Positions 3,844 to 33,260 of a DNA stretch of 64,000 nt are shown here, one piece after another. The stretch covers positions 1 through 64,000 of the forward strand of contig CAVXWP010000002.1 of the NCBI GenBank assembly GCA_963765495.1, read 5' to 3'. A program made the position numbers and the translations under genes. The notes beneath the pieces are model-generated. The model made no database searches. It worked only from the letters and a program-made list of their open reading frames with translations, and had not been told where the DNA came from. Source of the stretch: Blastocatellia bacterium. GTDB taxonomy: Bacteria > Acidobacteriota > Blastocatellia > UBA7656. Numbering within the stretch: position 1 is the stretch's first letter; each line of letters opens with the position of its first letter.

Positions 3844-5318
3844 ACTATGAAAATGTCCGGATGTGGCTCACGCAGCAGGTTGAACCTCTTCAACAGTGAC
3901 TTTCAATCCCGTTGCTTCGAGCCGATCAATCAATCGCTTCCTTTGCCTCTCTACATTCTGTTTGTCAAGGTAATCTCCTCCCAACTCTTTATAACTCATC
4001 TGTCGTTCGATCACATGATAAACAATTACCAAAAGTGTGTGGCCGACTGCCACCAATGCCTTCTTCTTCCCCAGCCGCTTCGCTAGCCTTCTATACTGCG
4101 CTGACAGATATGTCTGCTTTGTATGACTCGCTGCCCACGCCGCTTGTACCAGCGCCTCCCGCACATAGGTATTCCCTTTCGTCGTCTTCCCGCTACGCCG
4201 CTTGCCTGCCGATTCGTTATTTCCCGGACACATCCCTGCCCAACTCGAAATATGGCTGTCTGTCGGAAAGCGATCCATATCCACTCCGATCTCTGAGACT
4301 ATTGTTTCTGCCACTCTCTCTCCTATCCCTGGTATTGTTTGTAGCAGTTCTACGGCTTTAGAGACAAAAGGGTCGGCGCTCTCTCCCACCTCCTCGTCAA
4401 TCTGTTGCTCGACTCGTTTGACGGCAACTTCTACTTCTTCATATCGGGTCAGTAACTCGCCCAGCACAAAGCGTTGAGATTTCGTCAGTCGGCCTTCAAG
4501 AGCACGTTTGAGTTGGGGACGCTTGCTTCGCATACGTCGGCGAGCAAACTCACTCAACTTCTCGGCATCGCGCTCACCTGCTGCCAGTGCTCGCAACATC
4601 TGCCTGCCACTGACTCCCAAGACGTCGGTGGCGACTTGTCCGAGCTTGATGTTGGCACTCTCGATCAACTTCTGTATGCGATTGGCAATAGTCGCATTCT
4701 CTTTAACCAACTGCTGACGATAGCGTGTCAACTCTCTCAACTCCCTTATCTCAAGCGGAGGAATGAAGCTGGGCTTTAACAGACCGTGGCGCAGCAAATC
4801 GGCCAACCATTCGCAATCTTTTACATCGGTCTTACGGCCTGGAATACCTTTGTAGTGGCGGGCATTGACAAGCAAGACTTCTACGTTGCCTTCAAGGATG
4901 TTGAAGACAGGCTTCCAGTAAACACCCGTGCTTTCTATTGCAGCAATCGTGCAGCCTTCGGCTATGAGCCAATCCGAAAGACGAAGTAAGTCATCGGTCA
5001 TAGTAGAGAAAGTGCGGACTTCTTTCTTGCCGTGCTTAATGAGGCAAGCGACAACAGTCTTGGCGTGAACATCGAGGCCGCAACAACAAGAATAGATGAT
5101 CTCCATAGCTACCTCTTTCTGGCCAGGGCGTGAGAGCCTTGTTAATGAAGAGTCTACTATGCGTGCTCGAAGCAACAGTTGGTGGTGCCAGAAAGGCTCT
5201 CAGGTCAGGCTGCTATTCGGGCTTGAGGCACCAAGGCTGTACGACCTTATCTGACGCCGCTGACCACAGAGAGTTTAGTCGAACTCGCCCATATTTTCAT
5301 CATTCGTGGCGAAGCCTC
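3844..5318 (-). mobile_element. IS110-family element type 2; left end truncated by ISAs1
   Basis: Right end ATTTTCATAGTAGGC joins a cassette start AGGCTCGCGGG. The ~210-bp upstream non-coding region is homologous to that of the type-1 IS110 but stops about 12 bp short of the end. Confidence 0.85.
3868..5106 (-). CDS. IS110 family transposase/recombinase (DEDD)
   Basis: GLDVHA, IESTGVYW, RKTDVKD, IPGIG and GNNESAGK (catalytic Ser) motifs; 412 aa. Confidence 0.95.
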   Translation of the reverse strand: MEIIYSCCCGLDVHAKTVVACLIKHGKKEVRTFSTMTDDLLRLSDWLIAEGCTIAAIESTGVYWKPVFNILEGNVEVLLVNARHYKGIPGRKTDVKDCEWLADLLRHGLLKPSFIPPLEIRELRELTRYRQQLVKENATIANRIQKLIESANIKLGQVATDVLGVSGRQMLRALAAGERDAEKLSEFARRRMRSKRPQLKRALEGRLTKSQRFVLGELLTRYEEVEVAVKRVEQQIDEEVGESADPFVSKAVELLQTIPGIGERVAETIVSEIGVDMDRFPTDSHISSWAGMCPGNNESAGKRRSGKTTKGNTYVREALVQAAWAASHTKQTYLSAQYRRLAKRLGKKKALVAVGHTLLVIVYHVIERQMSYKELGGDYLDKQNVERQRKRLIDRLEATGLKVTVEEVQPAA

Positions 5319-8388: not shown

Positions 8389-9207
8389 GTCGGGTAAGGA
8401 GGCGATGTTATCATCGCCCCCTCCCCTCAGAACGGTACGGGCATCTTTCGACGCATACCGCTCAAGCATCTCAAAGGCTTCTTGCGAAACCCGGTCGTGC
8501 TTCTCAACACCACCTTCACGATACTCATTTGCTGCCGATTTGCCTTTCAGCCGGAAGCTGCACCAGCCAGTGTTGCCACTGCCGTCATCTGCGTTGCTTC
8601 CTGTATCGGTTCGTCAAACTCTCTCGTGACGAGACACCAGATGGAAGTCTGCACGCTTTCGCGTGAGGTGATCTTGCCATTGGCTCAACCTCTATCCAGT
8701 TCATTACAAACTGGCTTTCGCTTCCTCCATCTTCCTTTACCCGCCACTCCATCAATCGACCTTGCGGCTGATCTACCCCGCAGGGAGAGCGACGGGCTTA
8801 CCACGTTCCGCGTGCGTGCCAGAGTGGGTTAGGTCGTGCCTCTTGGCCGGTGGTTCGACATCTGCGACGGGCGAGTTAGGAGCGCCCGTGCCTGACCACT
8901 TGCCTTTTGGCCCAAGCGTCAAAGCATCTTCCGCTTGTTCCGGTTAACGACCTTTATCAGCACTTCACCTGGGTTGACCATACCACTCAATCCTAGTCCC
9001 CGACCCCTTTGATGCTAGGAGTCGCAACCGCTTCTCACGATTAAGTTGCCACTTCACAAAGGAAGTGAGGATACATTGTCCCGCAGGCTTCGCACCTCGC
9101 CGTTTGAAGCGACGCACGCTACGGTAGGATACTGATGGCAGAACATCAGGTTATATCCGGTTTCAAACAACCGTCATAACAGCCATTCACGCGACTTCGT
9201 GTCGCAC
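8389..9207 (-). ncRNA. ORF-less group II intron (IIB/CL1-like), copy 1, 819 nt
   Basis: 5' GTGCG; 34-nt domain V GAGCGGTATGCGTCGAAAGATGCCCGTACCGTTC; domain VI ending ...CCGAC; inserted at attC GTTAGG|C. Confidence 0.93.
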
Positions 9208-9299
9208 CCTAACGCCCCGGTTGACCGGCGCGCTGGTAGTTGTTGGAACCTGAGTAGTTGGATAGCGCGTCCGGTCGAACCGGCTTGTTAGACGCGTAG

Positions 9300-9740
9300 T
9301 TATTCACGACAGGCAATCTCTTTCCATCGAATCCTTGCATACCGCTCTTTGTTATCCCCGCCATTGCGCAAAATCGTAACCCGCTCGTAGTTGTCCACTC
9401 CTCCCCAGCAATTATCTAAAGGTAAGCACCTCATGTTAAGAAAGTTTCCCATGAGTTGTTTCCCACGCTGGCTTATTGGTACCAACTCATCAATTATTTC
9501 CGTTAGTTCCTTTGATCGCATAGTCTTCGTTATTGGGTAATTTAAGTCCGATGTTAACTGTTGCCGATGGATTATCATTTCGCAGACATCTCCGGTCTCA
9601 GAATATCTAAAGGTAACAAAGACATCGGGTCGGATAGTGAGTGTCTCTGAGATAGGTGAGCCATATTTCTTGAGGAGTTCTTCTCGGGATTGTGCGTTAG
9701 CAGTTATGCAGATAAACAAAATGGCGAAGAAAGCTTTCAT
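9300..9740 (-). CDS. Secreted hypothetical protein (cassette)
   Basis: Signal peptide MKAFFAILFICITANAQ; GGAGG RBS. Confidence 0.8.
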   Translation of the reverse strand: MKAFFAILFICITANAQSREELLKKYGSPISETLTIRPDVFVTFRYSETGDVCEMIIHRQQLTSDLNYPITKTMRSKELTEIIDELVPISQRGKQLMGNFLNMRCLPLDNCWGGVDNYERVTILRNGGDNKERYARIRWKEIACRE

Positions 9741-9868
9741 AATGCACCTCCGATTCCATAATACGGCCAGTCACAGGCAAGCGCTTAACGCCGGAGATAA
9801 CCGGCCCGCTGTGGGCTCAGGGATAATGAAGGGTTGGAATGCGGGTCCGGTTGATGGACCAGTTAGGC

Positions 9869-10061
9869 GCATTCCACCTTGAAGGTTCGGTAAAGATACC
9901 ACTGTCGAAATGCCAAGCCGCGCCAACAGATAGCTTCGACTCAACCGGAATTTATCGGGTAGCGCGGCGCAGTGATTGTGTCAGTACACTTTGTAGACAT
10001 GTAGTCTGATTGCTTGGTTGACGATCAGTGTAGCTCATTATCACGGATCGCTTCCCTGTGC
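9869..10061 (-). other. ORF-less cassette family B, short variant (identical to 25420-25612)
   Basis: Starts GTTAAGCGC; shares TGTCTACAA, GCCGCGC and GCGCGGCTT blocks with other family B copies. Confidence 0.7.
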
Positions 10062-10147
10062 GCTTAACGCCGGGCATCAGCGGCCCGCCGTGGTTGAAGG
10101 GATAATGAAATGGTGGTATGCGGGTCCGGTTGATTGAGCAGTTAGGC

Positions 10148-10502
10148 GGTCCCTTGCCTGTTTCATTACTTGAGCTTTGCTGGCCCTGATCCTCCAATTC
10201 TCAGCCTCACTTTCTGAGATAGGTTTTCCTGCTATTGCTTAGGAAGCAGCTTGATGTGCCAAGTTCGTCTTTTCCAATCAGGTTTGTGCTGCCGCTTACC
10301 TCAACAGGCAATTGCCATGTGAAGGTATCTTTTCGAGGTGGGTTTATCATTGAGCAATGCTGAACAATCGTTTGGAAGAAATATCATATGAAGGAGCAAG
10401 AGAAGAGAGAAGCGAGCAAGAGGCTCTCCTCGCTATGACTCGCCTGAACTGGTTTTCGTAGCGTTGCTTGATGAGTCGTTTCCCTCTCATCGACGTTCTG
10501 CC
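10148..10502 (-). other. ORF-less cassette family A (copy 4)
   Basis: Family A motifs. Confidence 0.8.
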
Positions 10503-10587
10503 GCCTAACGACGAGATAACCGGCCCGCTGTGGTTGAAGGGATAATGAAACGGTGGTATGCGGGTCCGGTTGATTGAGCAGTTAGGC

Positions 10588-10963
10588 AGCCCCTTGCCTG
10601 TTTCATTTCTTGCGCTTTGCTGGCCCTGATCCTCCTGTTTTCGTCTCACTTTCTGAGACAGGTTTTCCTACCATTGTCGGGGAAGCATCTGAATTGGCAG
10701 GTTTATCCTTCCAATCAGGTTTGACCTGCCACATTCCTTAACTGGCAATTGCCCTGCGAAGGTATCTTTTCGAGGCAGCATTGTCATTGAGCAATGCTGA
10801 ACAGACTGATTCGGGAGAAAGCAGTATCAGAGAAAGGAACAGAGATAAGCGATGCGAAGAGAGTGGAATGAGAAGCGAGCAAGCGCATTGTTCTGGCGAT
10901 GACTACCTGAACATATTATCGCATCATCGCTTGCTGAGTCGTCTCGCTTCTGAGAGACAGACG
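10588..10963 (-). other. ORF-less cassette family A (copy 5)
   Basis: Family A motifs; nearly identical to 49724-50101. Confidence 0.8.
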
Positions 10964-11782
10964 GTCGGGTAAGGAGGCGATGTTATCATCGCCCCCTCCC
11001 CTCAGAACGGTACGGGCATCTTTCGACGCATACCGCTCAAGCATCTCAAAGGCTTCTTGCGAAACCCGGTCGTGCTTCTCAACACCACCTTCACGATACT
11101 CATTTGCTGCCGATTTGCCTTTCAGCCGGAAGCTGCACCAGCCAGTGTTGCCACTGCCGTCATCTGCGTTGCTTCCTGTATCGGTTCGTCAAACTCTCTC
11201 GTGACGAGACACCAGATGGAAGTCTGCACGCTTTCGCGTGAGGTGATCTTGCCATTGGCTCAACCTCTATCCAGTTCATTACAAACTGGCTTTCGCTTCC
11301 TCCATCTTCCTTTACCCGCCACTCCATCAATCGACCTTGCGGCTGATCTACCCCGCAGGGAGAGCGACGGGCTTACCACGTTCCGCGTGCGTGCCAGAGT
11401 GGGTTAGGTCGTGCCTCTTGGCCGGTGGTTCGACATCTGCGACGGGCGAGTTAGGAGCGCCCGTGCCTGACCACTTGCCTTTTGGCCCAAGCGTCAAAGC
11501 ATCTTCCGCTTGTTCCGGTTAACGACCTTTATCAGCACTTCACCTGGGTTGACCATACCACTCAATCCTAGTCCCCGACCCCTTTGATGCTAGGAGTCGC
11601 AACCGCTTCTCACGATTAAGTTGCCACTTCACAAAGGAAGTGAGGATACATTGTCCCGCAGGCTTCGCACCTCGCCGTTTGAAGCGACGCACGCTACGGT
11701 AGGATACTGATGGCAGAACATCAGGTTATATCCGGTTTCAAACAACCGTCATAACAGCCATTCACGCGACTTCGTGTCGCAC
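10964..11782 (-). ncRNA. ORF-less group II intron, copy 2
   Basis: Same 819-nt sequence and same GTTAGG|C insertion point. Confidence 0.93.
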
Positions 11783-11929
11783 CCTAACGCCCCGGTTGAA
11801 CGGCCCGCTGTGGCCTCCCCTTCAAGCGAGTGGTTGGATTGCGGGTCCGGTCGAACCGGTTGTTAGGCATCCATGAAGCAAGGCTTCTTCACGACGGATG
11901 AAAATGTCTGAGAGTTTATGTATCCTTCC

Positions 11930-12070
11930 TTCTGGTCATTGGCTGATAGGTCGTCGGGCCTTGGTGCCTTTAGCCCGGTCGTTAGTTTGACTTGGGGAGC
12001 CTTTTCAGGCATCACAACTTGTTGCTTCGAGCACGCATAGCAGTCTCTTTTGTTTTGAGGCTCCCCGCCA
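11930..12070 (+). ncRNA. Putative bridge RNA of IS110 type 1
   Basis: Non-coding region conserved with the type-2 element. Two stem-closed domains carry GTCGTTAG (attC match) and CATAGCAG (element-end match). Boundaries approximate. Confidence 0.6.
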
Positions 12071-12090
12071 ATGCCGAAAGGAGTTCTATC

Positions 12091-13329
12091 ATGCAGATTC
12101 TTTACAACTCTTGCTGTGGTATTGATGTTCACGCTCGCACCGTTGTCGCCTGCCTCATCACTGACGGCAACAAAGAGGTTCGCACTTTCTCAACCATGAC
12201 TGATGATTTGCTTGCCCTGCTCGACTGGCTCACTTCTCAAGGCTGCACTCACGTCGCTATTGAAAGTACTGGCGTTTACTGGAAGCCTGTTTTCAATATC
12301 CTCGAATCCTCCCTGGAGGTTATTTTGGTTAATGCCCGCCACGTCAAAGCTGTTCCTGGCAGAAAGACTGATGTTAAGGATTGTGAGTGGCTTGCTGACC
12401 TGCTTCGTCACGGTCTGCTTCGTCCCAGCTTTATCCCTCCTCCTCATATCCGTGAACTCAGGGATTTGACTCGCTACCGCCAGAGCCTTATCCGTGAGCA
12501 GACTGCTCTTGCCAATCGCATTCAGAAGTTGATTGAAAGCGCCAATATCAAGCTCGCTCAAGTCGCTAGTGATGCTTTGGGGGTTAGCGGCAGGCTGATG
12601 CTGAGAGCTTTGGCTGATGGTCAAACCGATGCTGACAAGATCAGCGACCTTGCTCGTCGGAGGATGAAGCGTAAGAAGGCTGACTTGAAGCGTGCTTTGC
12701 ACGGTCGCCTCACTTCTGCCCAACGCTGGATTCTTAAAGAACTCCTCGATCAGTATGACTCGGTTGAATCCTCTATTAAGAGGGTTGAAGAGAAGATCAG
12801 CCAGGAGGTCGAAACTTCCCCAGACCCTTTTGTTAAGCAAGCTGTTGAGCTTCTCGATTCTATTCCAGGAGTCGCAAAGACCTTAGCCCAGATCATTGTC
12901 TCTGAGATTGGAGTAGATATGAGCTGCTTCCCAACAGACAAGAATCTCTCAAGTTGGGCTTCGATCTGTCCCAGTAATAATCAATCGGCAGGAAAACGAA
13001 AGAGTGGAAGAACCCAAAAGGGCAATAGCTATCTAAAAGCAGCCCTTGTGCAGGCAGCCTGGGCAGCAACGCATCAGAAGGATTGTTTCCTTGCAGCGAA
13101 GTACAAAAGGCTGGTCAAGAGAATGGGGAAGAAGAAGGCGCTGGTAGCAATAGCACATTCGATACTTGTGATTGTATATCACGTCTTAGAAGAGAGAGCC
13201 GGTTACAAAGAGTTGGGAGTAGATTATCTGGACAAAAGGAATGTAGAGAAGCAGCGGCGAAGATTAATCCGACAGCTTGAGGGGACGGGCTTGAGAGTAA
13301 CTGTTGAAGAGGTCGAGCAAGCTGCCTGA
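12091..13329 (+). CDS. IS110 family transposase/recombinase
   Basis: GIDVHA, IESTGVYW, RKTDVKD and SNNQSAGK motifs; AGGAG RBS before ATG 12091. Confidence 0.95.
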   Translation: MQILYNSCCGIDVHARTVVACLITDGNKEVRTFSTMTDDLLALLDWLTSQGCTHVAIESTGVYWKPVFNILESSLEVILVNARHVKAVPGRKTDVKDCEWLADLLRHGLLRPSFIPPPHIRELRDLTRYRQSLIREQTALANRIQKLIESANIKLAQVASDALGVSGRLMLRALADGQTDADKISDLARRRMKRKKADLKRALHGRLTSAQRWILKELLDQYDSVESSIKRVEEKISQEVETSPDPFVKQAVELLDSIPGVAKTLAQIIVSEIGVDMSCFPTDKNLSSWASICPSNNQSAGKRKSGRTQKGNSYLKAALVQAAWAATHQKDCFLAAKYKRLVKRMGKKKALVAIAHSILVIVYHVLEERAGYKELGVDYLDKRNVEKQRRRLIRQLEGTGLRVTVEEVEQAA

Positions 13330-13359
13330 TCAACACCTACTCTTATTTTCATAGCAGGC

Positions 13360-13620
13360 GCGTTCTGATTTGCAAGTGCGTCACAGATGATTGCATTGGT
13401 TCGAGCCGCGCCTGCTTTCTTTGCCTTACAGCTGGATTTTGGCTCACCCTTTTCGAGAAGCGCGGCGGAGTGTGAGGCTAACAGCTTGGCTCATAGACAG
13501 GTCTACTTCGCTGCAATCTGACGAGCGATGTGAGTTTAAAAGCATTGCTTGTAGGCAGATATTCTTCGTCGCATCCTTGGCAATCAATGCCTCTCTTTCT
13601 CACCGACCAACTCCCGGCGC
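13360..13620 (-). other. ORF-less cassette family B
   Basis: Homologous to 1836-2096 and 48935-49198. Confidence 0.75.
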
Positions 13621-13747
13621 GCTTAACGACGAGTTCAGCGGCGCGCTGTGGGCTTCGATGCAATCGAGTAGTTGGAATGCGCGTCCGCTGGAATGAGCAG
13701 TTAGGCTCACTCCCACAAAAACCTCTTGAAGAACAATGAGGAAAATC

Positions 13748-14740
13748 TTAAGCGGAAATTGACTCCACTGGACCAATTTCACATCCACATTCCACTGCTC
13801 CCATTTTTATGGTTTGAGTGTAGTTTCTACCCACGACATCCTGAAATTCTATCCTTAAAGGAAAAATGCGCCCATTTGCATGTTCCTGCTTAAGATGAAA
13901 CAGAAAATTCAGCCCAAACCCGTGTCCAGTCGGCTCATCCCCAAATCGGGATATGTGCTTGATGATCGTTGGTTCTCCAGGTCGAAGGTATGTCAATCTC
14001 TCGAATGCTATATTCGCATCAAGTGTAGAATCGAGTTGGAGGCTAACTGTCTCTATTCTAATGTTGATAGCTGAAATATTTCCAATGTTGATAATCTCAA
14101 GCTGTTCGCCTAATTGGATTAAGCGAGTAGCAAATGCAGGTAAAGAATAAATTTGCGAGATTTTCTGAGCCTTTTGCCTAGATTTGGCGCTATTTGTCCT
14201 CTTGGCTCGGGTTCCAGCCTTCTCTTTCGTCTTTCTACTAACTGAATCAGGTGTATCCAAAATGCTTGAGGAACCCACCACTTCCTTAATGAGTTCACTG
14301 ATCTGGACGAGGACTTGGTCTTGGTCAGCTTTTTTCATACGGGCTAAGGGTTTCTCAGGATTAAGTATAGCAGCTTGGTATTTTTGAATAGCAGTTTCTT
14401 TGTAAAGACTAGGTCGAATGGGTATCCACATTATCGTTAAGCCATTTTTTTGAGCGGCATTCAGCAATGGTGGGAGCTCAACATTTGCAATAAAATCAGA
14501 TGCAAGAAACTCTGGACTTACAAGGAGGACTGCAACGCGGGCACGAGTTATGGCTTCTTCGATTTCCTTTTTCCATTCTGTGCCAACCTGAATCTTAGTA
14601 TCATCCCACAATGAAACCTTGTTATCTCTAACAAGCGGTTTTAGGATGATTTGGAGCTTTTCCAACCATTTTTGATCCTTGTGACTATAGCTAATGAATA
14701 TCTGGTTGCGGATGTTTCGTGTGCGTGGCCTCTTCACCAT
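13748..14740 (-). CDS. TIR domain protein (cassette)
   Basis: IFISYSHKD...LWDDTKIQVG...VSPEFLASDFIANVELP, with the catalytic Glu position present. Confidence 0.9.
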   Translation of the reverse strand: MVKRPRTRNIRNQIFISYSHKDQKWLEKLQIILKPLVRDNKVSLWDDTKIQVGTEWKKEIEEAITRARVAVLLVSPEFLASDFIANVELPPLLNAAQKNGLTIMWIPIRPSLYKETAIQKYQAAILNPEKPLARMKKADQDQVLVQISELIKEVVGSSSILDTPDSVSRKTKEKAGTRAKRTNSAKSRQKAQKISQIYSLPAFATRLIQLGEQLEIINIGNISAINIRIETVSLQLDSTLDANIAFERLTYLRPGEPTIIKHISRFGDEPTGHGFGLNFLFHLKQEHANGRIFPLRIEFQDVVGRNYTQTIKMGAVECGCEIGPVESISA

Positions 14741-14926
14741 TGCAGGCTTTATTATATGCAAAAAGACAACATGCACAACCCAATGGTTGCCTAACTCAGA
14801 TTTAGACTCCGTAAAGTTGTTTGATACAACGAACATTAGTGATCTCGCATGAATGGAAATGCCACTAGCGAAATTGAAAGCCATCTCCTTTTTTCCAAAT
14901 CGAGAAGCATCGGGTCACCGAGAGAG

Positions 14927-15745
14927 GTCGGGTAAGGAGGCGATGTTATCATCGCCCCCTCCCCTCAGAACGGTACGGGCATCTTTCGACGCATACCGCT
15001 CAAGCATCTCAAAGGCTTCTTGCGAAACCCGGTCGTGCTTCTCAACACCACCTTCACGATACTCATTTGCTGCCGATTTGCCTTTCAGCCGGAAGCTGCA
15101 CCAGCCAGTGTTGCCACTGCCGTCATCTGCGTTGCTTCCTGTATCGGTTCGTCAAACTCTCTCGTGACGAGACACCAGATGGAAGTCTGCACGCTTTCGC
15201 GTGAGGTGATCTTGCCATTGGCTCAACCTCTATCCAGTTCATTACAAACTGGCTTTCGCTTCCTCCATCTTCCTTTACCCGCCACTCCATCAATCGACCT
15301 TGCGGCTGATCTACCCCGCAGGGAGAGCGACGGGCTTACCACGTTCCGCGTGCGTGCCAGAGTGGGTTAGGTCGTGCCTCTTGGCCGGTGGTTCGACATC
15401 TGCGACGGGCGAGTTAGGAGCGCCCGTGCCTGACCACTTGCCTTTTGGCCCAAGCGTCAAAGCATCTTCCGCTTGTTCCGGTTAACGACCTTTATCAGCA
15501 CTTCACCTGGGTTGACCATACCACTCAATCCTAGTCCCCGACCCCTTTGATGCTAGGAGTCGCAACCGCTTCTCACGATTAAGTTGCCACTTCACAAAGG
15601 AAGTGAGGATACATTGTCCCGCAGGCTTCGCACCTCGCCGTTTGAAGCGACGCACGCTACGGTAGGATACTGATGGCAGAACATCAGGTTATATCCGGTT
15701 TCAAACAACCGTCATAACAGCCATTCACGCGACTTCGTGTCGCAC
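14927..15745 (-). ncRNA. ORF-less group II intron, copy 3
   Basis: Same 819-nt sequence and same GTTAGG|C insertion point. Confidence 0.93.
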
Positions 15746-15841
15746 CCTAACGCTCCGGTTGAGCGGCCCGCTGTGGCCTTCGCTTCATCTGAATAGTTGG
15801 CATGCGGGTCCGGTCGAACCGGTTTGTTAGACCCATCCTGG

Positions 15842-16393
15842 CTATCTGAATAGCTCGTCTACAGGGAACCTCCACCCAGCAACTGCTGGTTCAGCTTCTG
15901 CTATTTCGCCGCGACGATAGATCATTGAATTGTCTGGATCATTTGAGCGGTAAACGCTTATCACGTCCTCACTTAGTAAATCAACATCCCAAACCACTAG
16001 TGTCCCGCTTCTAAAATAATCTCTGATCTTTTCCATTATGGCCTTCTCTGCCTTTGGGCCATAGTCACTTTTGCTTCTTATTTCGGCAGCAAAAACCGGA
16101 GCGCCATCTAAGAAATCCATGCTGTCAATGTTACCGATATACCAAGCTGCATCAGGGCTGAATGAATCTCGATTAGACAGGTTTACTGCAAACCCGACAT
16201 TGTCTCCAAATGCATACCCGCCTCCGTGCCTGCTCTCGTGATTATTAAGGCTTGTGACAATCTTCATCGCAGCACGGCCTGGTCGTGAACCTGTCGGACT
16301 CATCAGAACTACTTCTCCATTGATGATTTCGGCTTTCTGGTTGCCGGGCACTTCGTACAAATCTTGAATGGTTGCTTTAGCTTTAGTGGTCAT
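15842..16393 (-). CDS. Uma2 family endonuclease
   Basis: EIINGEVVLMSP, SPDAAW, AEIRS and WDVD motifs. Confidence 0.9.
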   Translation of the reverse strand: MTTKAKATIQDLYEVPGNQKAEIINGEVVLMSPTGSRPGRAAMKIVTSLNNHESRHGGGYAFGDNVGFAVNLSNRDSFSPDAAWYIGNIDSMDFLDGAPVFAAEIRSKSDYGPKAEKAIMEKIRDYFRSGTLVVWDVDLLSEDVISVYRSNDPDNSMIYRRGEIAEAEPAVAGWRFPVDELFR

Positions 16394-16602: not shown

Positions 16603-17163
16603 CTACTCTTCTTCTGGTACCACATCGTCAACTGGCATTGACCATCCTGGCACTGCATCACCGGCGTCGGCTATATCTCCACGACGGAAGACAATTGGAT
16701 TCTCAGGATCATCAGAATGATATGCTTTAATCACATCTGTACTCAGCACGTCCACATCCCAAACACATCTTGTTCCGGCGTTAAAGTAGTCTCGGCGTTT
16801 GTCTGCCATCTTCCGTTCTGAATGTGGGCCATAGTCTCCTTCACTTCTAACCTCTGTGGCAAAAACCGGAGCCCCTTCCAAAAATCCCATTCCTGTTGGT
16901 TTACCTGTGTACCAAGCTGCGTCAGGACTGAATGAGCTTCGGTTTGGTAGGTTTACTCCGAATCCAGCATTGTCGGGGAATGCATAGCCAGACTTTGTTT
17001 TGCGCTCATGGTCGCTGAGGCTTCTATAGATTGAGCCAGCAGCGCGACTCGGCCAGAATCCGGTTGGGGCCATCAGTATAAGTTCTCCATCGACAATTTC
17101 AGCTTTGCCATTCTCAGGCACGTGATAGAGGTCTTCAATAGTAGCTTGAATCTTTGTAATCAT
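16603..17163 (-). CDS. Uma2 family endonuclease (paralogue)
   Basis: EIVDGELILMAP, SPDAAW and TEVRS motifs. Confidence 0.9.
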   Translation of the reverse strand: MITKIQATIEDLYHVPENGKAEIVDGELILMAPTGFWPSRAAGSIYRSLSDHERKTKSGYAFPDNAGFGVNLPNRSSFSPDAAWYTGKPTGMGFLEGAPVFATEVRSEGDYGPHSERKMADKRRDYFNAGTRCVWDVDVLSTDVIKAYHSDDPENPIVFRRGDIADAGDAVPGWSMPVDDVVPEEE

Positions 17164-20760: not shown

Positions 20761-21252
20761 TCAAATACTCTCAGCAAAACGAATAACCCAGTCTTTCTGT
20801 TCTACAGTGTCCGGCACTTCGCAACCTCTTGCAATCTGAATTTGTTCAAAAGCATCTTCGACTTTCGCACCGTTGTTTACCAAAAGCAGAGCAGCAATCA
20901 TCGCAGAGCGACCAACACCCTGCCTGCAATGAATAACTATGTTCTTCTCTTCTGACAAAAGCCTTTCGACATCCCTGAGAAAACTCATTGTTTCTATGCG
21001 TGATGTTGGGACACCTCTGTCAGCAATAGGGAAATGGATGAAGGCAATGCCTGTTTTCTCGCAAAGTGTCTGTTCCTGCGTAAGATCGAGTTCTGAGATT
21101 TCATCATTTTCAAGAAGAGAAACGATAACATCAGCGTGAGATTGGTGAAGAGAAGCAATTTCATCTTCAAGCCAATCACCACCGCGAGGACGTGGAATGA
21201 TCCCGATGTGGCCAGAATCAGATTGATTAATCCAGAACACCTTTACATGCAT
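20761..21252 (-). CDS. Protein-tyrosine/dual-specificity phosphatase
   Basis: HCRQGVGRS (CX5R) and FPIADRGVP motifs. Confidence 0.9.
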   Translation of the reverse strand: MHVKVFWINQSDSGHIGIIPRPRGGDWLEDEIASLHQSHADVIVSLLENDEISELDLTQEQTLCEKTGIAFIHFPIADRGVPTSRIETMSFLRDVERLLSEEKNIVIHCRQGVGRSAMIAALLLVNNGAKVEDAFEQIQIARGCEVPDTVEQKDWVIRFAESI

Positions 21253-21271: not shown

Positions 21272-22762
21272 GCCTGCTATGAAAATAAGAGTAGGTGTTG
21301 ATCAGGCAGCTTGCTCGACCTCTTCAACAGTTACTCTCAAGCCCGTCCCCTCAAGCTGTCGGATTAATCTTCGCCGCTGCTTCTCTACATTCCTTTTGTC
21401 CAGATAATCTACTCCCAACTCTTTGTAACCGGCTCTCTCTTCTAAGACGTGATATACAATCACAAGTATCGAATGTGCTATTGCTACCAGCGCCTTCTTC
21501 TTCCCCATTCTCTTGACCAGCCTTTTGTACTTCGCTGCAAGGAAACAATCCTTCTGATGCGTTGCTGCCCAGGCTGCCTGCACAAGGGCTGCTTTTAGAT
21601 AGCTATTGCCCTTTTGGGTTCTTCCACTCTTTCGTTTTCCTGCCGATTGATTATTACTGGGACAGATCGAAGCCCAACTTGAGAGATTCTTGTCTGTTGG
21701 GAAGCAGCTCATATCTACTCCAATCTCAGAGACAATGATCTGGGCTAAGGTCTTTGCGACTCCTGGAATAGAATCGAGAAGCTCAACAGCTTGCTTAACA
21801 AAAGGGTCTGGGGAAGTTTCGACCTCCTGGCTGATCTTCTCTTCAACCCTCTTAATAGAGGATTCAACCGAGTCATACTGATCGAGGAGTTCTTTAAGAA
21901 TCCAGCGTTGGGCAGAAGTGAGGCGACCGTGCAAAGCACGCTTCAAGTCAGCCTTCTTACGCTTCATCCTCCGACGAGCAAGGTCGCTGATCTTGTCAGC
22001 ATCGGTTTGACCATCAGCCAAAGCTCTCAGCATCAGCCTGCCGCTAACCCCCAAAGCATCACTAGCGACTTGAGCGAGCTTGATATTGGCGCTTTCAATC
22101 AACTTCTGAATGCGATTGGCAAGAGCAGTCTGCTCACGGATAAGGCTCTGGCGGTAGCGAGTCAAATCCCTGAGTTCACGGATATGAGGAGGAGGGATAA
22201 AGCTGGGACGAAGCAGACCGTGACGAAGCAGGTCAGCAAGCCACTCACAATCCTTAACATCAGTCTTTCTGCCAGGAACAGCTTTGACGTGGCGGGCATT
22301 AACCAAAATAACCTCCAGGGAGGATTCGAGGATATTGAAAACAGGCTTCCAGTAAACGCCAGTACTTTCAATAGCGACGTGAGTGCAGCCTTGAGAAGTG
22401 AGCCAGTCGAGCAGGGCAAGCAAATCATCAGTCATGGTTGAGAAAGTGCGAACCTCTTTGTTGCCGTCAGTGATGAGGCAGGCGACAACGGTGCGAGCGT
22501 GAACATCAATACCACAGCAAGAGTTGTAAAGAATCTGCATGATAGAACTCCTTTCGGCATTGGCGGGGAGCCTCAAAACAAAAGAGACTGCTATGCGTGC
22601 TCGAAGCAACAAGTTGTGATGCCTGAAAAGGCTCCCCAAGTCAAACTAACGACCGGGCTAAAGGCACCAAGGCCCGACGACCTATCAGCCAATGACCAGA
22701 AGGAAGGATACATAAACTCTCAGACATTTTCATCCGTCGTGAAGAAGCCTTGCTTCATGGAT
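21272..22762 (-). mobile_element. IS110-family element type 1, second copy, in the attC R' core
   Basis: Inverted identical copy of 11869-13359; removing it restores GGAGCCTAACGAC. Confidence 0.92.
21302..22540 (-). CDS. IS110 family transposase/recombinase
   Basis: Identical protein to 12091..13329. Confidence 0.95.
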   Translation of the reverse strand: MQILYNSCCGIDVHARTVVACLITDGNKEVRTFSTMTDDLLALLDWLTSQGCTHVAIESTGVYWKPVFNILESSLEVILVNARHVKAVPGRKTDVKDCEWLADLLRHGLLRPSFIPPPHIRELRDLTRYRQSLIREQTALANRIQKLIESANIKLAQVASDALGVSGRLMLRALADGQTDADKISDLARRRMKRKKADLKRALHGRLTSAQRWILKELLDQYDSVESSIKRVEEKISQEVETSPDPFVKQAVELLDSIPGVAKTLAQIIVSEIGVDMSCFPTDKNLSSWASICPSNNQSAGKRKSGRTQKGNSYLKAALVQAAWAATHQKDCFLAAKYKRLVKRMGKKKALVAIAHSILVIVYHVLEERAGYKELGVDYLDKRNVEKQRRRLIRQLEGTGLRVTVEEVEQAA

Positions 22763-28281: not shown

Positions 28282-28473
28282 GCCTAACGACGAGTTCAGC
28301 GGCGCGCTGTGGTGAAAGGGATAGCCAGAAGGTGGAATGCGCGTCGGCTGGAATGAGCAGTTAGGCGCAGTCCTTCCCGTCTTTTCAAATAAGCAAATAT
28401 ACCTCGTCTTGGGGTTGGTTCCTCATCCCTGATCTCTTAGCTCTATGAAGAAGTGGATTGGTATGCTTACGTT

Positions 28474-29068
28474 TCAATCTTGAATCCATGGTCTTGCTGC
28501 CATAAATGCTTTATCGCTCTCCAACTCTCTAACGAAAAACCTTAGCATGCTCTCAATAGATTCAAACTGACTTGTTCCAGGGTTCCATATCATTAAGTTT
28601 CCATCGGGCTCGAGTTTATATTCATACAAGTGATAATTTCGCAAATTGAAAGGTACCTCACTCTTGTCTGCCTTTTCGCGGAATAGGATAAACCTTTTGT
28701 GCATTAGCATCATCATTCCGAGCTCTAACATAACATTCGCATTATTTCCTGTTATATCTCCAATCCCGAAATGAGATGATTTAATGCTATCCATAAGATC
28801 ATCAAGAACATATCCTCTACCTGGAGTATATACATAGTGTTCTGCCTTGATACCCTTCATCTCAAGGAACACGTTAATGTTTTCTTGAACGGAGTTGAAT
28901 TTTTCTTCAAAAGGACGAGCAACAAAACCCGTTCGAAATGTACTTAGACCCATCTGATCTTTTGTCTTTAGAATTGTCTCGCGAAATAGTCTAATGCCTT
29001 CAAATGTGTGTCTCTGGTTATGTTGTGCTGCTTCAACTTTCCAAAGAATCCTTGCGATAGATTTAGAT
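28474..29068 (-). pseudogene. 5'-truncated gene with nucleoside 2-deoxyribosyltransferase/TIR-like C-terminal domain
   Basis: FVARPF...GDITGNNANVMLELG...VPFNL; the frame stays open up to the IS end at 29069. Confidence 0.7.
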
Positions 29069-29136
29069 CTAAGTACAGGACAAAAATGATCTTTGAAAAT
29101 GCATAAAAGGCCACCGCTGCTTTATCCTTTTCAAGA

Positions 29137-30679
29137 GTAACTACTCAGCCGCTAGTCGAGATCAGAGAAGACGAGCGGAAAAAAGTTTGGTTTCGTAATT
29201 TGATTAGGCTATGAGACGTGATGAAATCCAAGCTGTGTATAGCGAAGGAGTTGATGCGGTTGTCTCCTTGGTCGAACGTCTCTTTAGCATCATCGAAACT
29301 CAGCGTCTTGATATTGAAGTTCTGAAAACTCAAGTCAAAGACCTCCAACAGCGTCTGGCGATGACCTCCTCCAATAGCAGCAAGCCGCCATCTTCTGATG
29401 GTTTCAATAAACAGACACGCTCCTTGCGAAAGAAAAGTAAGAAGAAAAGAGGGGGACAAAAAGGCCACCCTGGCTCTCGCCTGGCCTTGCGCGAGTTGCC
29501 TGATTCTACACTTTTGCATCACCCCCAAAGTTGTTCTTCTTGTGGGCGTTCGTTGGCAGAAGTCTTGCCCCGAATCCTCGATGAGCGCCGACAAGTCTTT
29601 GATTTGCCACCCTTGTCTGTGGAAGTTACAGAGCATCGGATCAGCAAGAAAAGCTGTCCCGGTTGCCGAAGCGAAACGCTTGGCGAGTTTCCTCTCGACG
29701 TGCAAAAGGGAGTCAGCTATGGCAGCCGAATTAAAGGCTTTCTCCTCTATTTGCACAAAGGCCAACTGATCCCGAGCCGACGGAGTTGTCAGATTGTCGA
29801 GGATCTGTTTTCTCAGGCGGTCTCGGAAGGCACCTTGCAGACCATCACCAGAGAAGGTTCCAAAGAGTTGGAAGAAGGTTGCGAGTTGATCAAAGCGGCA
29901 ATCACCAGGGCGGAGGTGGTGAATTTTGATGAGACCGGAATCTATGTTGAGAAGCATCGAGATTGGTTGCACAGCAGTTCGACAAATCGCCTCACCTATT
30001 ATGCTGTGGATTCTCAGCGGGGGCGAGAAGCGATAGAAAGAATCGGCATCTTGCCCCGGTTTGCTGGCATCGCTTGTCACGATGCTCTGGCTTCTTATCT
30101 GAGCTATTGGTGCCAGCACGCTTTGTGCAACGCACATCACTTGCGAGAGTTGACGTTTTTGCAAGAGGTTCAAAGTAGAATCTGGGCCGGGGAGATGAAA
30201 CGGCTGCTGGTGAGCATCAAAAGGGCTGTAGAACGGGCTCGCGCCAAGAGAAAAACGGCGTTGAGCAAGAGCACACAAACAAGATTTGTGAATGCTTATC
30301 AAGCGATTTTGCAACGCGGGTTCGAGCGCGAACAACAAGAGTTGATGCCACGGCAACCAAGAGGAAAACGCGGACGCAAAAAACAGTCGAAAGCGAAGAA
30401 CCTGTTGGACAGATTGTGCAAGTATCAAGAAGAGACGTTGCGATTCATGCGAGACTTTCGGGTGCCGTTTGACAACAACTTGGCCGAGCGCGACCTCAGA
30501 ATGATGAAAGTGCAGCAGAAAATATCGGGTTGCTTCCGCACGAAAGAAGGAGCGACGGACTTCTGCCGCATCCGCAGTTATATCTCGACGATGAAAAAGC
30601 AAGGTCATAATCTTTTAGAAGCACTCAGAAGTGTCTTCGCAGGAAATCCTATACTACCCGACACTGGCTGAGTAGTTAC
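29137..30679 (+). mobile_element. IS66 family element (single-ORF type)
   Basis: TIR GTAACTACTCAGCC; 8-bp DR TTTCAAGA. Confidence 0.93.
29211..30671 (+). CDS. IS66 family transposase
   Basis: NSSKPPSSD, GGQKGHPG, zinc finger, FDETG, CNAHHLREL and DNNLAERDLR motifs. Confidence 0.95.
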   Translation: MRRDEIQAVYSEGVDAVVSLVERLFSIIETQRLDIEVLKTQVKDLQQRLAMTSSNSSKPPSSDGFNKQTRSLRKKSKKKRGGQKGHPGSRLALRELPDSTLLHHPQSCSSCGRSLAEVLPRILDERRQVFDLPPLSVEVTEHRISKKSCPGCRSETLGEFPLDVQKGVSYGSRIKGFLLYLHKGQLIPSRRSCQIVEDLFSQAVSEGTLQTITREGSKELEEGCELIKAAITRAEVVNFDETGIYVEKHRDWLHSSSTNRLTYYAVDSQRGREAIERIGILPRFAGIACHDALASYLSYWCQHALCNAHHLRELTFLQEVQSRIWAGEMKRLLVSIKRAVERARAKRKTALSKSTQTRFVNAYQAILQRGFEREQQELMPRQPRGKRGRKKQSKAKNLLDRLCKYQEETLRFMRDFRVPFDNNLAERDLRMMKVQQKISGCFRTKEGATDFCRIRSYISTMKKQGHNLLEALRSVFAGNPILPDTG

Positions 30680-30716
30680 TTTCAAGAACTGTAAACACTT
30701 GAGAGGAGAAAGCACG

Positions 30717-31784
30717 ATGACCTCGATTCGCCCGCTTGAGCGAACCCTTGCTGAAAATATAGATTGGAACAAAGCCCGCATCAACTTCCTAGCGAAGTTT
30801 CTCATCGCTTTGATCCAAGTCTGCTCTGTTAATCTTGCTGAGATTGCTTCGGTCTTCCCTGGTCGCGCTAAAGAAGGATCGCACTACAAACGCATCCAGC
30901 GATTCTTGCGTGGCTTCCAGATCAGCTATGCAGAGATCGCCGTCTTGATCGTCTCGCTTATGGGCTTGCCCTCTCCCTGGGTGCTGACTTTGGATCGCAC
31001 CAACTGGCAACTCGGCAAAACGCCCTTGAATATTTTGGTACTCGGCATTGTCTACAAAGGAGTGGCGATACCAGTGCTGTGGACGATCCTTGAGAAAAAA
31101 GGGAACTCCAACACGGCTGAACGCATAGCGATAATGGAGGAATTCATCGGCTTGTTCGGCGCTGCTTCGATCCTCTATTTGTGTGCAGACAGGGAGTTTA
31201 TTGGCAAGACGTGGTTTGAGTGGTTGCAGCGCAATCACATTAATTTCCGCATTCGCATTCGAGAGAACACGCTTTTGCCAAACGGTCGTGGGGAGTTGGT
31301 AGCGGCGCGGCGACTGTTCCGCTCTCAGGCAATCAATAAGGCGTTGATCTTCGACAAGCCACGACTGATCTGGGGGCTGGAGTTGTTTGTGAGTGGGATG
31401 CGACTTGAAAGTGGTGAATATCTGATTTTGGTTGCGCCAGACTACTCAGTAACGGCGATAGAAGATTATGCAAAACGATGGGAAATTGAAACATTGTTTG
31501 GGTGTTTGAAGAGTCGTGGTTTCCGGCTTGAGGAAACACACGTCATTGAGCCAGAGAGGTTGAAGAAGTTGATAGCGTTGATGGCCTTGGCGTTTTGTTG
31601 GGCGCATGTAGTGGGTGAGTGGTTGAGCCGACAAAAAGCCCTCAAGATCAAAAAGCATGGGCGAATGGCAAAGAGTATATTTCGATATGGATTGAATCAT
31701 TTGCGGCGCATATTATGCAATCTTTCGGATCGCCTCCAACAGATTGCTTTTAGACAAGTTACTCAACTTTTGTCATGTACTTAG
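30717..31784 (+). CDS. IS4 family transposase
   Basis: LDRTNW, ADREF and YAKRWEIETLFGCLKSRGF motifs. Confidence 0.93.
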   Translation: MTSIRPLERTLAENIDWNKARINFLAKFLIALIQVCSVNLAEIASVFPGRAKEGSHYKRIQRFLRGFQISYAEIAVLIVSLMGLPSPWVLTLDRTNWQLGKTPLNILVLGIVYKGVAIPVLWTILEKKGNSNTAERIAIMEEFIGLFGAASILYLCADREFIGKTWFEWLQRNHINFRIRIRENTLLPNGRGELVAARRLFRSQAINKALIFDKPRLIWGLELFVSGMRLESGEYLILVAPDYSVTAIEDYAKRWEIETLFGCLKSRGFRLEETHVIEPERLKKLIALMALAFCWAHVVGEWLSRQKALKIKKHGRMAKSIFRYGLNHLRRILCNLSDRLQQIAFRQVTQLLSCT

Positions 31785-32477
31785 ATTTGGGGGAATCAAT
31801 TCATATCCGCTTTCGGCATTAGGGTTAAGCCTATAGTACTCTCCTTGTGACCACTTCATACCATCATCAAAGATAACGTATTCAATTCTGATTACGACCT
31901 GATTTAAGTCAACAAGTTGGAAATTGCGGGATGCCAGGAAATCCTTAATAATGTTCAGGTGATGAGGTGACAATGTAAAATTGAAAGTATCTCCTGATTC
32001 TAGAGCCAAAGGAGACTCAGATTTTGAACTGTTTGCTAATGCTTTTGGATGTATACCTATACCTAACTGATTGTAGACCATCATTGGGCCATTATTTATA
32101 GTTTCGGGGAAATCCAGTTCGACGCTAATATACGTCATTCGCTTTGGTGTCAAATTTTTAATACTGAATTGAAGATTCTCAATCCAATCTGCAGCTTCAC
32201 CTCCTGCCTGTTTAGCTAACGAACTGAAACTAAATTTCTTTTTGAGATCAACCCGGGTGTTCTTTACCTTTAAGTTGGCAAATTGGAAGGGTTCATTAGG
32301 AAATTCTTTTTTCTCAATGACTTTTTCATCTGATTGTCTCAATAAGGTTGATGTACTCGCTGTTACCGTAACATCACTTGGCCGCAATGCAAATCCAAAT
32401 ATTGCTGAGAGGATACAGGCTAATACAACAATGAGGATCTTTTTGAATCGATCTAAGCTAGATTTTTGCATTATCAT
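31785..32477 (-). CDS. Secreted hypothetical protein; C-terminus runs into the IS end
   Basis: N-terminal TM; YVIFDDGMKW; the stop codon lies inside the IS. Confidence 0.7.
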
Positions 32478-32590
32478 TTTGCGCCTCTCCGTTAGCAGTT
32501 ATCCGAATACCGAGAATAGGTTTCTAAGACCATCAAACAATTTAATTGTAAGATGGGTTGATTGCCATAACTATAGTGTGAGGCTAGCGA

Positions 32591-32619
32591 TTATTACCAC
32601 AATTGTTTATATCTGTCAA
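32591..32619 (-). promoter_or_regulatory. sigma70-like promoter
   Basis: TTGACA-17 bp-TAATAA(T) on the minus strand, upstream of 32477. Confidence 0.55.
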
Positions 32620-33260
32620 AGAAAAATTCAATTAGCTTTCAGTATTTTGTATTAATAAGGATATGCAGGTTCTGTATTGCGGTCAAATATTATGGAAGTT
32701 CTCTCGATTACAGGAGTATTTATTGGACTGCTGGCAGGTATTTTGTGCAGGAAGACCTATGCTGCTTAATCTTCTAATGCACCTTGCTGGTAATGAACAA
32801 TTAGGTACAATGCCAGTCAGACCAAATTGATCTAGCAAGCGAGCAGTTGCGGCGATGGGTCTGTTGTCTCGACAGGTGACTTGCCGCGATGTTCTGCCTT
32901 TCAATTCATGATCAGACCTTGAACTTCCTCGCCCCGTCAGAAGGCCTAACCTTGGCATTCAGCGGACCCGCATTCCAACATCGCATTATCCCTTTGCTGC
33001 TGGCGGGCCGCTGATGCCTGCGTTAGGCTCGCTCAGGACTAACCACGTCAGCGGTATGGATAATTCTAAGGAAATCTGATTCTTCCGTTAAAGCCTGACA
33101 ACGGACGATGCTCTGATTTATCTACCTTAGATTAGCTCTTGATCTTCCGTACATCTATTGAGCAATTAGACTATTTCCTGCAATACTACTCTCTATAATC
33201 GAATGCGCATGCAGATCATCAGTAAATTGGCTAATTTGGAGATTACCAAAGGAGAAGTCA

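Follow-up and report, generated by a model that had tools for sequence, protein, structure and literature searches.

Group II introns of integrons have so far been viewed as class IIC elements in antisense orientation, which block or re-promote the expression of gene cassettes. In the accessible part of their description, IIC-attC introns insert into the bottom strand of the attC site in antisense to the cassettes, thereby cutting a gene off from the attC that belongs to it (PMC3001079), and they are the only introns named in the accessible part of a 2022 review of integrons (PMC8876359). One printed precedent for a different class has been found, namely UHB.I2, a IIB1/CL1 intron that contains an open reading frame (ORF) and that was described, as far as the accessible text goes, from an integron in a soda-lake metagenome (Sonbol & Siam 2021, PMC7923331); no other printed IIB intron in an integron was found in the full-text literature, subscription journals lying outside that coverage. 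ORF-less IIB1 introns mobilised in trans, as well as a twintron, are reported from Thermosynechococcus elongatus in the accessible part of another study (PMC8643678). Here we analyse a stretch of 64,000 nucleotides (nt) from a Blastocatellia bacterium (GenBank assembly GCA_963765495.1, contig CAVXWP010000002.1, positions 1 to 64,000), referred to below as the window, in which three identical ORF-less group II introns reside in the R' cores of attC sites, in the same orientation as the cassettes.

An 819-nt element occurs three times on the minus strand of the window, identical at 819 of 819 nt across all copies, and all three junctions are exact at GTTAGG|C within the R' core of attC. Identity between the copies extends past the element by 1-4 nt on its left side and 8-17 nt on its right (in plus-strand sense), and each copy, read on the minus strand, runs ...GCGTTAGG|GUGCGACACG...CCUUACCCGAC|C.... 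The Rfam covariance models yield six matches, all on the minus strand and from two families per copy: RF02012 scores 113.8 bits (gathering threshold 34) and RF00029, which covers domains V and VI (D5/D6), 64 bits (gathering threshold 40) in every copy. The hallmarks of group II introns are present (5' GUGCG, 3' GAC, a bulged A in domain VI, the AGC triad and a CC bulge), with domain V reading GAGCGGUAUGCGUC-GAAA-GAUGC-CC-GUACCGUUC. Judged from sequence and covariance models, the 819-nt copies are complete group II ribozymes comprising domains I-VI. An initial annotation of this DNA, made from the sequence by a model, had described three identical ORF-less copies at GTTAGG|C, a hairpin ACGGGCG-CUCCUAACU-CGCCCGU (8889-8867), a 34-nt domain V with AGC triad and CC bulge, and a 13-codon ORF MTAVATLAGAASG* at 8588-8547; all of these were recovered, domain V agreeing with both the sequence and the Rfam alignment, and the comparison with the Rfam group II models that it had proposed gave both families above gathering threshold on the minus strand. 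The relevant features, including the exon-binding site 1 (EBS1) and the remnant of the gene for an intron-encoded protein (IEP), are as follows.

8389..9207, minus strand: intron copy 1, 819 nt, with 5' GUGCG at 9207 and 3' ...GAC at 8389 (Rfam and sequence).
10964..11782, minus strand: intron copy 2, same sequence as copy 1 (Rfam and sequence).
14927..15745, minus strand: intron copy 3, same sequence as copy 1 (Rfam and sequence).
9208..9293, minus strand: attC that serves as 5' exon for copy 1; its top strand reads GTCTAAC...GCGTTAGG|, and copy 1 follows GTTAGG of R'.
11783..11869, minus strand: attC that serves as 5' exon for copy 2.
15746..15832, minus strand: attC that serves as 5' exon for copy 3.
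8996..9150, minus strand: domain I core, match to RF02012 (group-II-D1D4-7; Rfam).
8867..8889, minus strand: hairpin with the EBS1 of copy 1, at intron nt 319-341; its stem is ACGGGCG/CGCCCGU and its loop CUCCUAACU.
11442..11464 and 15405..15427, minus strand: EBS1 hairpins of copies 2 and 3, respectively.
8861..8865, minus strand: alpha' GCAGA, immediately 3' of the EBS1 hairpin, pairing with the IB loop UCUGC at 9138-9142.
8828..8833, minus strand: second CCUAAC, intron nt 375-380, a motif conserved regardless of the exon.
8547..8588, minus strand: domain IV remnant, 13 codons, apparently the first codons of the lost IEP ORF (MTAVATLAGAASG*).
8430..8463, minus strand: domain V, 34 nt, with AGC triad, GAAA loop and CC bulge (Rfam and sequence).
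8389..8429, minus strand: domain VI, 3' end GAC, with the bulged A at 8395, 7 nt from the 3' splice site.

In our view the three copies probably go back to recent insertion of a non-autonomous intron of the IIB1/CL1 type, which homes into the attC R' core (GTTRRR|Y) on the cassette-sense top strand. According to this model, the EBS1 loop CCUAAC would pair with the terminal GUUAGG of attC, and domain IV would have lost the reverse transcriptase (RT) gene while retaining the start-codon region, which is normally bound by intron-encoded proteins. Because the intron shares the sense of the cassettes, its removal by splicing is to be expected; it would be excised from array transcripts, restoring GUUAGG|C with the predicted ligated-exon junction ...GCGUUAGG|C.... 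Retrohoming to further attC sites might then proceed by reverse splicing and reverse transcription, with a related CL1-type protein, presumably, acting in trans.

The genome was searched for an ORF-containing relative, as the initial annotation had suggested, and a single one was found (contig C2, 554579-559350; locus L016, 2580-7351), which has an identity to the 819-nt element of 70% (intron nt 1-648) and 76% (nt 741-819), and which is inserted in an IS3-like transposase gene (...KYEEV|YIKGY...). The start of its RT ORF, ATGACGGCAGTGGCAACACTG, is identical to the start region of the 13-codon remnant, and the 819-nt element is therefore regarded as a deletion derivative that keeps the start region, which agrees with the earlier view of domain IV as carrying the remnant of a lost ORF. 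A second, unrelated group II intron interrupts the RT ORF of this paralog at ...TPQGG|..SPTL... and encodes its own intact RT of 558 amino acids, 29% identical to the outer RT; the locus is evidently a twintron. Contigs C8 and C9 each begin with the 3' half of a similar copy. The elements found here are those of an ORF-less mobile intron: the ORF is lost with the ribozyme and the start region of domain IV (DIVa) kept, there are three identical copies, and a related RT exists elsewhere in the genome, albeit split by the inner intron.

The two halves of the paralog IEP match the T.el4h RT (PDB 6me0_C) with E-values of 1e-92 and 1e-90, the protein carries an HNH endonuclease tail, and its N half is 63% identical to ltrA genes of E. 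coli plasmids. T.el4h/Th.e.I3 and EcI5 are classified as IIB1 introns with CL1 RTs in the accessible part of the literature (PMC8643678). The Rfam D1 family detected in our copies is common to IIB1-type relatives. Class IIC introns have a D5 shorter than the 34 nt found here. The IIB1/CL1-like class proposed in the initial annotation is thus supported through the paralog protein, the 819-nt intron itself encoding none.

The recognition of the 5' exon can be followed by covariation. The loop CCUAAC of the hairpin (loop at intron nt 326-334) is complementary to the intron-binding site 1 (IBS1) GUUAGG, the last six nt of attC. In relatives with unrelated exons the loop changes with the exon: it complements exon positions -6..-1 both in an intron from a plasmid of Burkholderia (CAUCAU/AUGAUG) and in one from a plasmid of Methylobacter (UUGGUCA/UGACCAG), and within the attC group the exon GTTAGA is accompanied by the loop UCUAAC, and GTTGGA by UUCAAC. 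Among the anchored relatives at other targets, 4 of 11 have a 6-nt complement at the hairpin position, compared with 0.42 expected from 200 exon permutations. The stem of the hairpin exists in 18 distinct compensated versions among 40 parsed members, and full complementarity in these members is provided by the hairpin alone in 9 cases, by a second motif alone in 1, by both in 19 and by neither in 11. The alpha-alpha' pair GCAGA/UCUGC covaries in three plasmid-borne relatives. The hairpin flagged earlier as EBS1 thus stands; the second CCUAAC (8833-8828) had gone unmentioned, and it is kept as CCUAACCC in relatives whatever their exon, because of which we regard it as a structural motif and not as EBS1. 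The reverse assignment, with the second CCUAAC as EBS1 and the hairpin as EBS2, was first favoured by homology with the paralog and is ruled out, since the motif is exon-independent, the hairpin covaries with exon -6..-1 and alpha' follows the hairpin. In the paralog itself (L016 2850-2925, compared with its 5' exon at L016 2560-2579), the loop at the EBS1 position complements exon -15..-10, and the element CCUCUU found at the usually conserved CCUAAC position (GACCUCUUC) complements exon -9..-1; these pairings look like a canonical EBS2/EBS1 pair located in the 'wrong' elements.

The strand of insertion follows from the orientation of the array. An attC scan of the window, admittedly crude, returned 48 attC-like sites, including one overlapping duplicate and one doubtful 60-nt match; early detectors based on regular expressions or arm alignment missed many sites, and their counts are likewise crude. 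The extra bases of attC belong to the R''/L'' arm, the one lying 5' in the top strand. In each of the 29 attC sites at 424-28366, read on the plus strand, it is the 3' arm that has the extra unpaired bases. Folding with RNAfold places small bulges on the 3' arm of the plus strand in 24 of the 29 (1 opposite, 4 with no clean hairpin) and on the 5' arm of the minus strand in 21 (1 opposite, 7 with no clean hairpin). It is these extrahelical bases that determine the choice of strand, according to the accessible part of PMC8946536. Independently of the folds, ORFs with Pfam domains (TIR, Sel1, two Uma2 and DSP phosphatase) lie on the minus strand, and in that direction an attC comes after every one of them; the Pfam scan of cassette ORFs placed 4 of 10 above the cut-off (Sel1, both Uma2 and the DSP phosphatase), the TIR domain coming from a separate scan. 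Since the order of the domain-bearing ORFs and the asymmetry of attC agree, the minus strand is taken as the cassette-sense, top strand, and hence the introns are cassette-sense and lie inside R' at GTTAGG|C, as the initial annotation had claimed.

A classical antisense intron in the bottom strand of attC, with the orientation of the array simply misread, is the least probable explanation of all. It draws on the near-palindromic nature of attC, both strands of which can end in GTTAGGC (146 top-strand and 199 bottom-strand cases in the genome), and it conflicts with the order of ORFs and attC sites on the minus strand and with the assignment of the plus strand as bottom in 29/29 sites by asymmetry and in 24 of the 29 by folding. 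Intron and cassette ORFs share the minus strand, and the ribozyme and the IEP of its relative appear to be of the IIB1/CL1 type, the latter T.el4h-like and HNH-tailed, unlike the IIC proteins, which lack the endonuclease (En-minus).

The intron is not peculiar to this genome. In the same family, 19 of 53 genomes, this one included, have matches, and in other genera of the family near-full-length ORF-less homologs, ~70% identical, are situated directly after attC hairpins at GTTAGG|. Junction variants among the family homologs are GTTAGC, GTTATG and GTCAGG, the 3' exons begin with C, and several homologs start with UUGCG instead of GUGCG. The ORF-less family homologs share the short layout of domain IV, and the loss of the ORF is therefore inferred to be old and not a private deletion. 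A scan with the 5' motif of the intron, using one genome per species, returned 80 loci: attC-type junctions in metagenome-assembled genomes (MAGs) of Acidobacteriota/Blastocatellia and Chloroflexota, two of them with 2.4-kb ORF-containing introns; a sister group inserted after GTTA| in MAGs of Gammaproteobacteria; and family members at unrelated targets in Actinobacteria and others. The gammaproteobacterial sister group (contigs L054, L063, L070, L115 and L078/L096/L097) includes both ORF-less forms of ~820 nt and ORF-containing forms of at least 2.3 kb, starts with CUGCG or UUGCG, and sits after attC-like hairpins at ...CGTTA|, i.e. two bases earlier.

In metagenomes, a scan for GTTRRR|KTGCGACACGARGTCGC found at least 120 contigs with the exact junction. 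The 3' end (D5/D6) was in reach for 36 of the 120 listed junctions and defined 18 introns of 809-1124 nt, 17 of 2115-2471 nt and 1 spurious case, these length counts including some duplicate records. Among the matches listed, all 18 short introns carry both Rfam families, and the long ones encode IEPs that are 50-69% identical to the paralog IEP, several with clear HNH motifs and some without the tail. For the 104 distinct listed junctions with 140 nt upstream, RNAfold gave the top-strand signature in 34, the opposite one in 3, a tie in 6 and no clean hairpin in 61. Some metagenome contigs and related genomes carry several intron copies per contig. Taken together, the sequences indicate that an intron lineage with attC R'-core specialisation occurs in related genomes, other phyla and metagenomes, and is widespread.

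The introns that home to attC are not resolved as one clade in a tree of the N half of the IEP (26 rows), whose starred branches force at least two changes; the attC label needs 6 changes, compared with a mean of 8.2 on shuffling, and 32 of 500 shuffles were as low. Because its rows were picked by motif scans, the sampling of this tree is biased. Members of the wider family were also observed at other positions of attC (L085 215; L188 about 7735, minus strand; L261 about 9442, plus strand), one of them at the crossover point of IntI (...GAATAGATG|TTAGGT), on the strand whose L box resembles that of a bottom strand, and others at ...GGTGT|; as the positions differ, this intron family has several modes of attC targeting.

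The history of the three copies can be judged from their flanks. Their 5' exons are 76-83% identical over the last 90 nt and their 3' exons 50-80% over the first 60 nt. One could suppose that the copies are inert relics of one old insertion in R', multiplied at the DNA level, whether by gene conversion or homologous recombination between copies or through the duplication of cassettes by IntI. Both cassettes that flank copy 1 do have paralogs of 98.7-99.7% identity elsewhere in the genome, those downstream of copies 1 and 2 are paralogous to each other (80% over the first 60 nt), the assembly is without an intact, uninterrupted cognate IEP, and many equivalent attC sites are empty. Yet the 100% identity of the introns contrasts with an identity of 50-83% in the diverged flanks on both sides, the cassette that follows copy 3 is unrelated, and the near-identical paralogs of the flanking cassettes have junctions without the intron. 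Moreover, every junction is exact at GTTAGG|C, and the same junction is found with diverged introns in many genomes and metagenomes. We regard multiplication of a relic at the DNA level as unlikely.

Several observations nonetheless weigh against recent homing in the form proposed. The assembly has a single related IEP gene, and this is interrupted by another intron. Only 3 of about 149 top-strand GTTAGG|C sites in the genome are occupied (146 being empty, in a crude set of ~231 attC sites), and none of the 199 bottom-strand ends in GTTAGGC; most of these ends read AGTTAGG|C and would form 7 bp with the loop, and therefore pairing of the hexamer with EBS1 alone cannot account for insertion into the top strand. 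The three occupied sites are all members of an attC subfamily with GCCGNTCAACCGGRGC before GTTAGG, which has 14 unoccupied members within 4 mismatches, and the chance of finding all three in it is (17/149)^3, or about 0.0015 by our arithmetic. At least 4 unoccupied attC sites are identical to occupied ones over the 22-nt 5' exon. Something beyond the GTTAGG hexamer seems to be read at the target site; a scan of the intron for complements to exon -7..-22 found no RNA basis for the subfamily preference. EBS2 and EBS3 (also EBS2a) were not located, no plausibly placed intron segment being complementary to exon -7..-22, and neither the conserved 'UCA' upstream of the hairpin, nor a GUGAA segment, nor a general complement scan gave a consistent pairing for EBS2. 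The exon-binding pattern of the paralog departs from the EBS1 rule. In DNA run X1, one contig joins 8388 to 9208, omitting exactly the 819 nt; such an empty site speaks for insertion, but the joint has 21 nt on its short side in a single contig, which makes it only a hint. The only RNA run, X11, gave 5 contigs, 90-95% alike and derived from relatives, with flanks unlike the window, which are uninformative on expression and splicing. Finally, the intron contig of run X1 has a depth of 5.4, compared with about 4-4.5 for the single-copy flanks, and is thus not threefold, contig depth being a poor measure of copy number.

This depth, about 1.2-1.3x that of the single-copy flanks instead of 3x, is also what would be expected if one repeat had been placed three times by the assembler. 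Such an artefact is very improbable: each copy has unique flanks on both sides, a contig of run X1 (record 4, 851 nt) continues beyond the intron into the sequence flanking copy 1, and the same architecture is present in related genomes and in metagenome contigs, some of them with multiple copies.

The surroundings of the introns are those of a large cassette assemblage. The asymmetry of the 19 attC rows at 32944-53058 is reversed relative to 424-28366, from which it follows that the window contains two oppositely oriented arrays; the first (424-28366, minus-sense) and the second (32944-53058, plus-sense) diverge from a block of insertion sequences (IS) at 28400-32900, made up of IS4-like, IS66-like and DDE transposases. 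With the NCBIfam profiles, the genome contigs gave three integron integrases above the cut-off, on contigs C6, C17 and C3, and none in the window; divergent arrays without an integrase suggest either an IS-mediated inversion or an integrase-less attC cluster. ORFs of the IS110 family (DEDD_Tnp_IS110 and Transposase_20) are found within the attC array at 11992-13329 (plus strand), 21302-22639 (minus) and 3868-5175 (minus), one of them directly adjoining the attC of intron copy 2. A subgroup of these elements, IS1111, is known to target attC sites. The cassette ORFs, all on the minus strand, lie at 13748-14884, 15842-16393, 16603-17163 and 20761-21252 and include a TIR protein, two putative endonucleases of the Uma2 family and a DSP-type phosphatase; copy 3 ends 42 nt upstream of the ATG of the TIR-domain ORF (14884-13748). 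Further attC arrays are seen on contigs C2 (560000-605000), C9 (5000-30000), C6 (265000-277000), C3 (317000-325000) and C17 (1-4000). The crude genome-wide count of about 231 attC sites includes 125 on contig C2, and many cassettes are duplicated between arrays with 98-99.7% identity.

The position of the introns bears on their movement with cassettes. Crossover by IntI takes place at G|TT, and from this it follows that the intron should travel with the downstream cassette; against such co-travel, a 99.65% identical paralog of the downstream cassette exists elsewhere in the genome without the intron. We lean, by a modest measure, towards a broader interpretation, in which environmental integrons carry a cross-phylum, cassette-sense IIB1/CL1 lineage that is a mirror image of the antisense IIC-attC introns, with a loop tuned to the R' core. 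Its ORF-less derivatives would be long-lived, spliceable riders at cassette boundaries, moved with the cassettes since they lie 5 nt beyond the IntI crossover, and their identical direct repeats would allow reshuffling independent of IntI. If so, a sense-oriented, splicing-competent IIB lineage would alter the current view of integron introns, as it could be near-neutral for cassette expression and hitch-hike with the cassettes. It would supply long identical repeats inside the arrays, permitting IntI-independent deletion, duplication and reshuffling of cassette blocks, and it might join attC sites to new genes. With its autonomous and ORF-less forms on at least 120 metagenome contigs, this lineage is abundant, and it offers a natural case of a IIB1 intron that has a structured recombination site as its 5' exon and whose choice of strand goes beyond EBS1 pairing.

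Compared with the described systems, the present introns resemble the IIC-attC introns (e.g. S.ma.I2) as a group II lineage specialised on the attC core and lying beside the attC hairpin; the bottom-strand, antisense insertion that the initial annotation gave for the latter agrees with the accessible part of PMC3001079. They differ in that the IIC-attC introns are of class IIC, antisense and endowed with their own RT, whereas those studied here are IIB1/CL1-like, cassette-sense, ORF-less and placed behind R', where the next cassette begins. The D1 of the present intron aligns well with that of plasmid relatives, and the similarity of the paralog IEP (63% for the N half to E. coli plasmid ltrA; E 1e-92 to T.el4h) links it to the model introns EcI5 and T.el4h; these, however, use EBS1, EBS2, EBS2a and EBS3 on ordinary gene targets, whereas here only EBS1 is assigned and the 5' exon is the hairpin of a recombination site. 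In T. elongatus, as far as the accessible text describes it, non-autonomous IIB1 introns with a full ribozyme proliferate using the RT of ORF-containing relatives, and that organism has a twintron and is also the source of the closest solved RT, T.el4h; its introns target sites other than attC, and trans-mobilisation is experimental there and inferred here. A further counterpart is UHB.I2, a IIB1/CL1 intron likewise in cassette orientation immediately downstream of attC, whose 5' UUGCG start recurs in several homologs of the present intron. It is an ORF-containing single case, compared here by description and not by sequence, and the accessible text on it does not describe the R'-core/EBS1 logic, the ORF-less derivatives or the wider distribution. 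With this one precedent found in print, the presumably attC-R'-homing, IIB1/CL1-like lineage is widespread but barely described.

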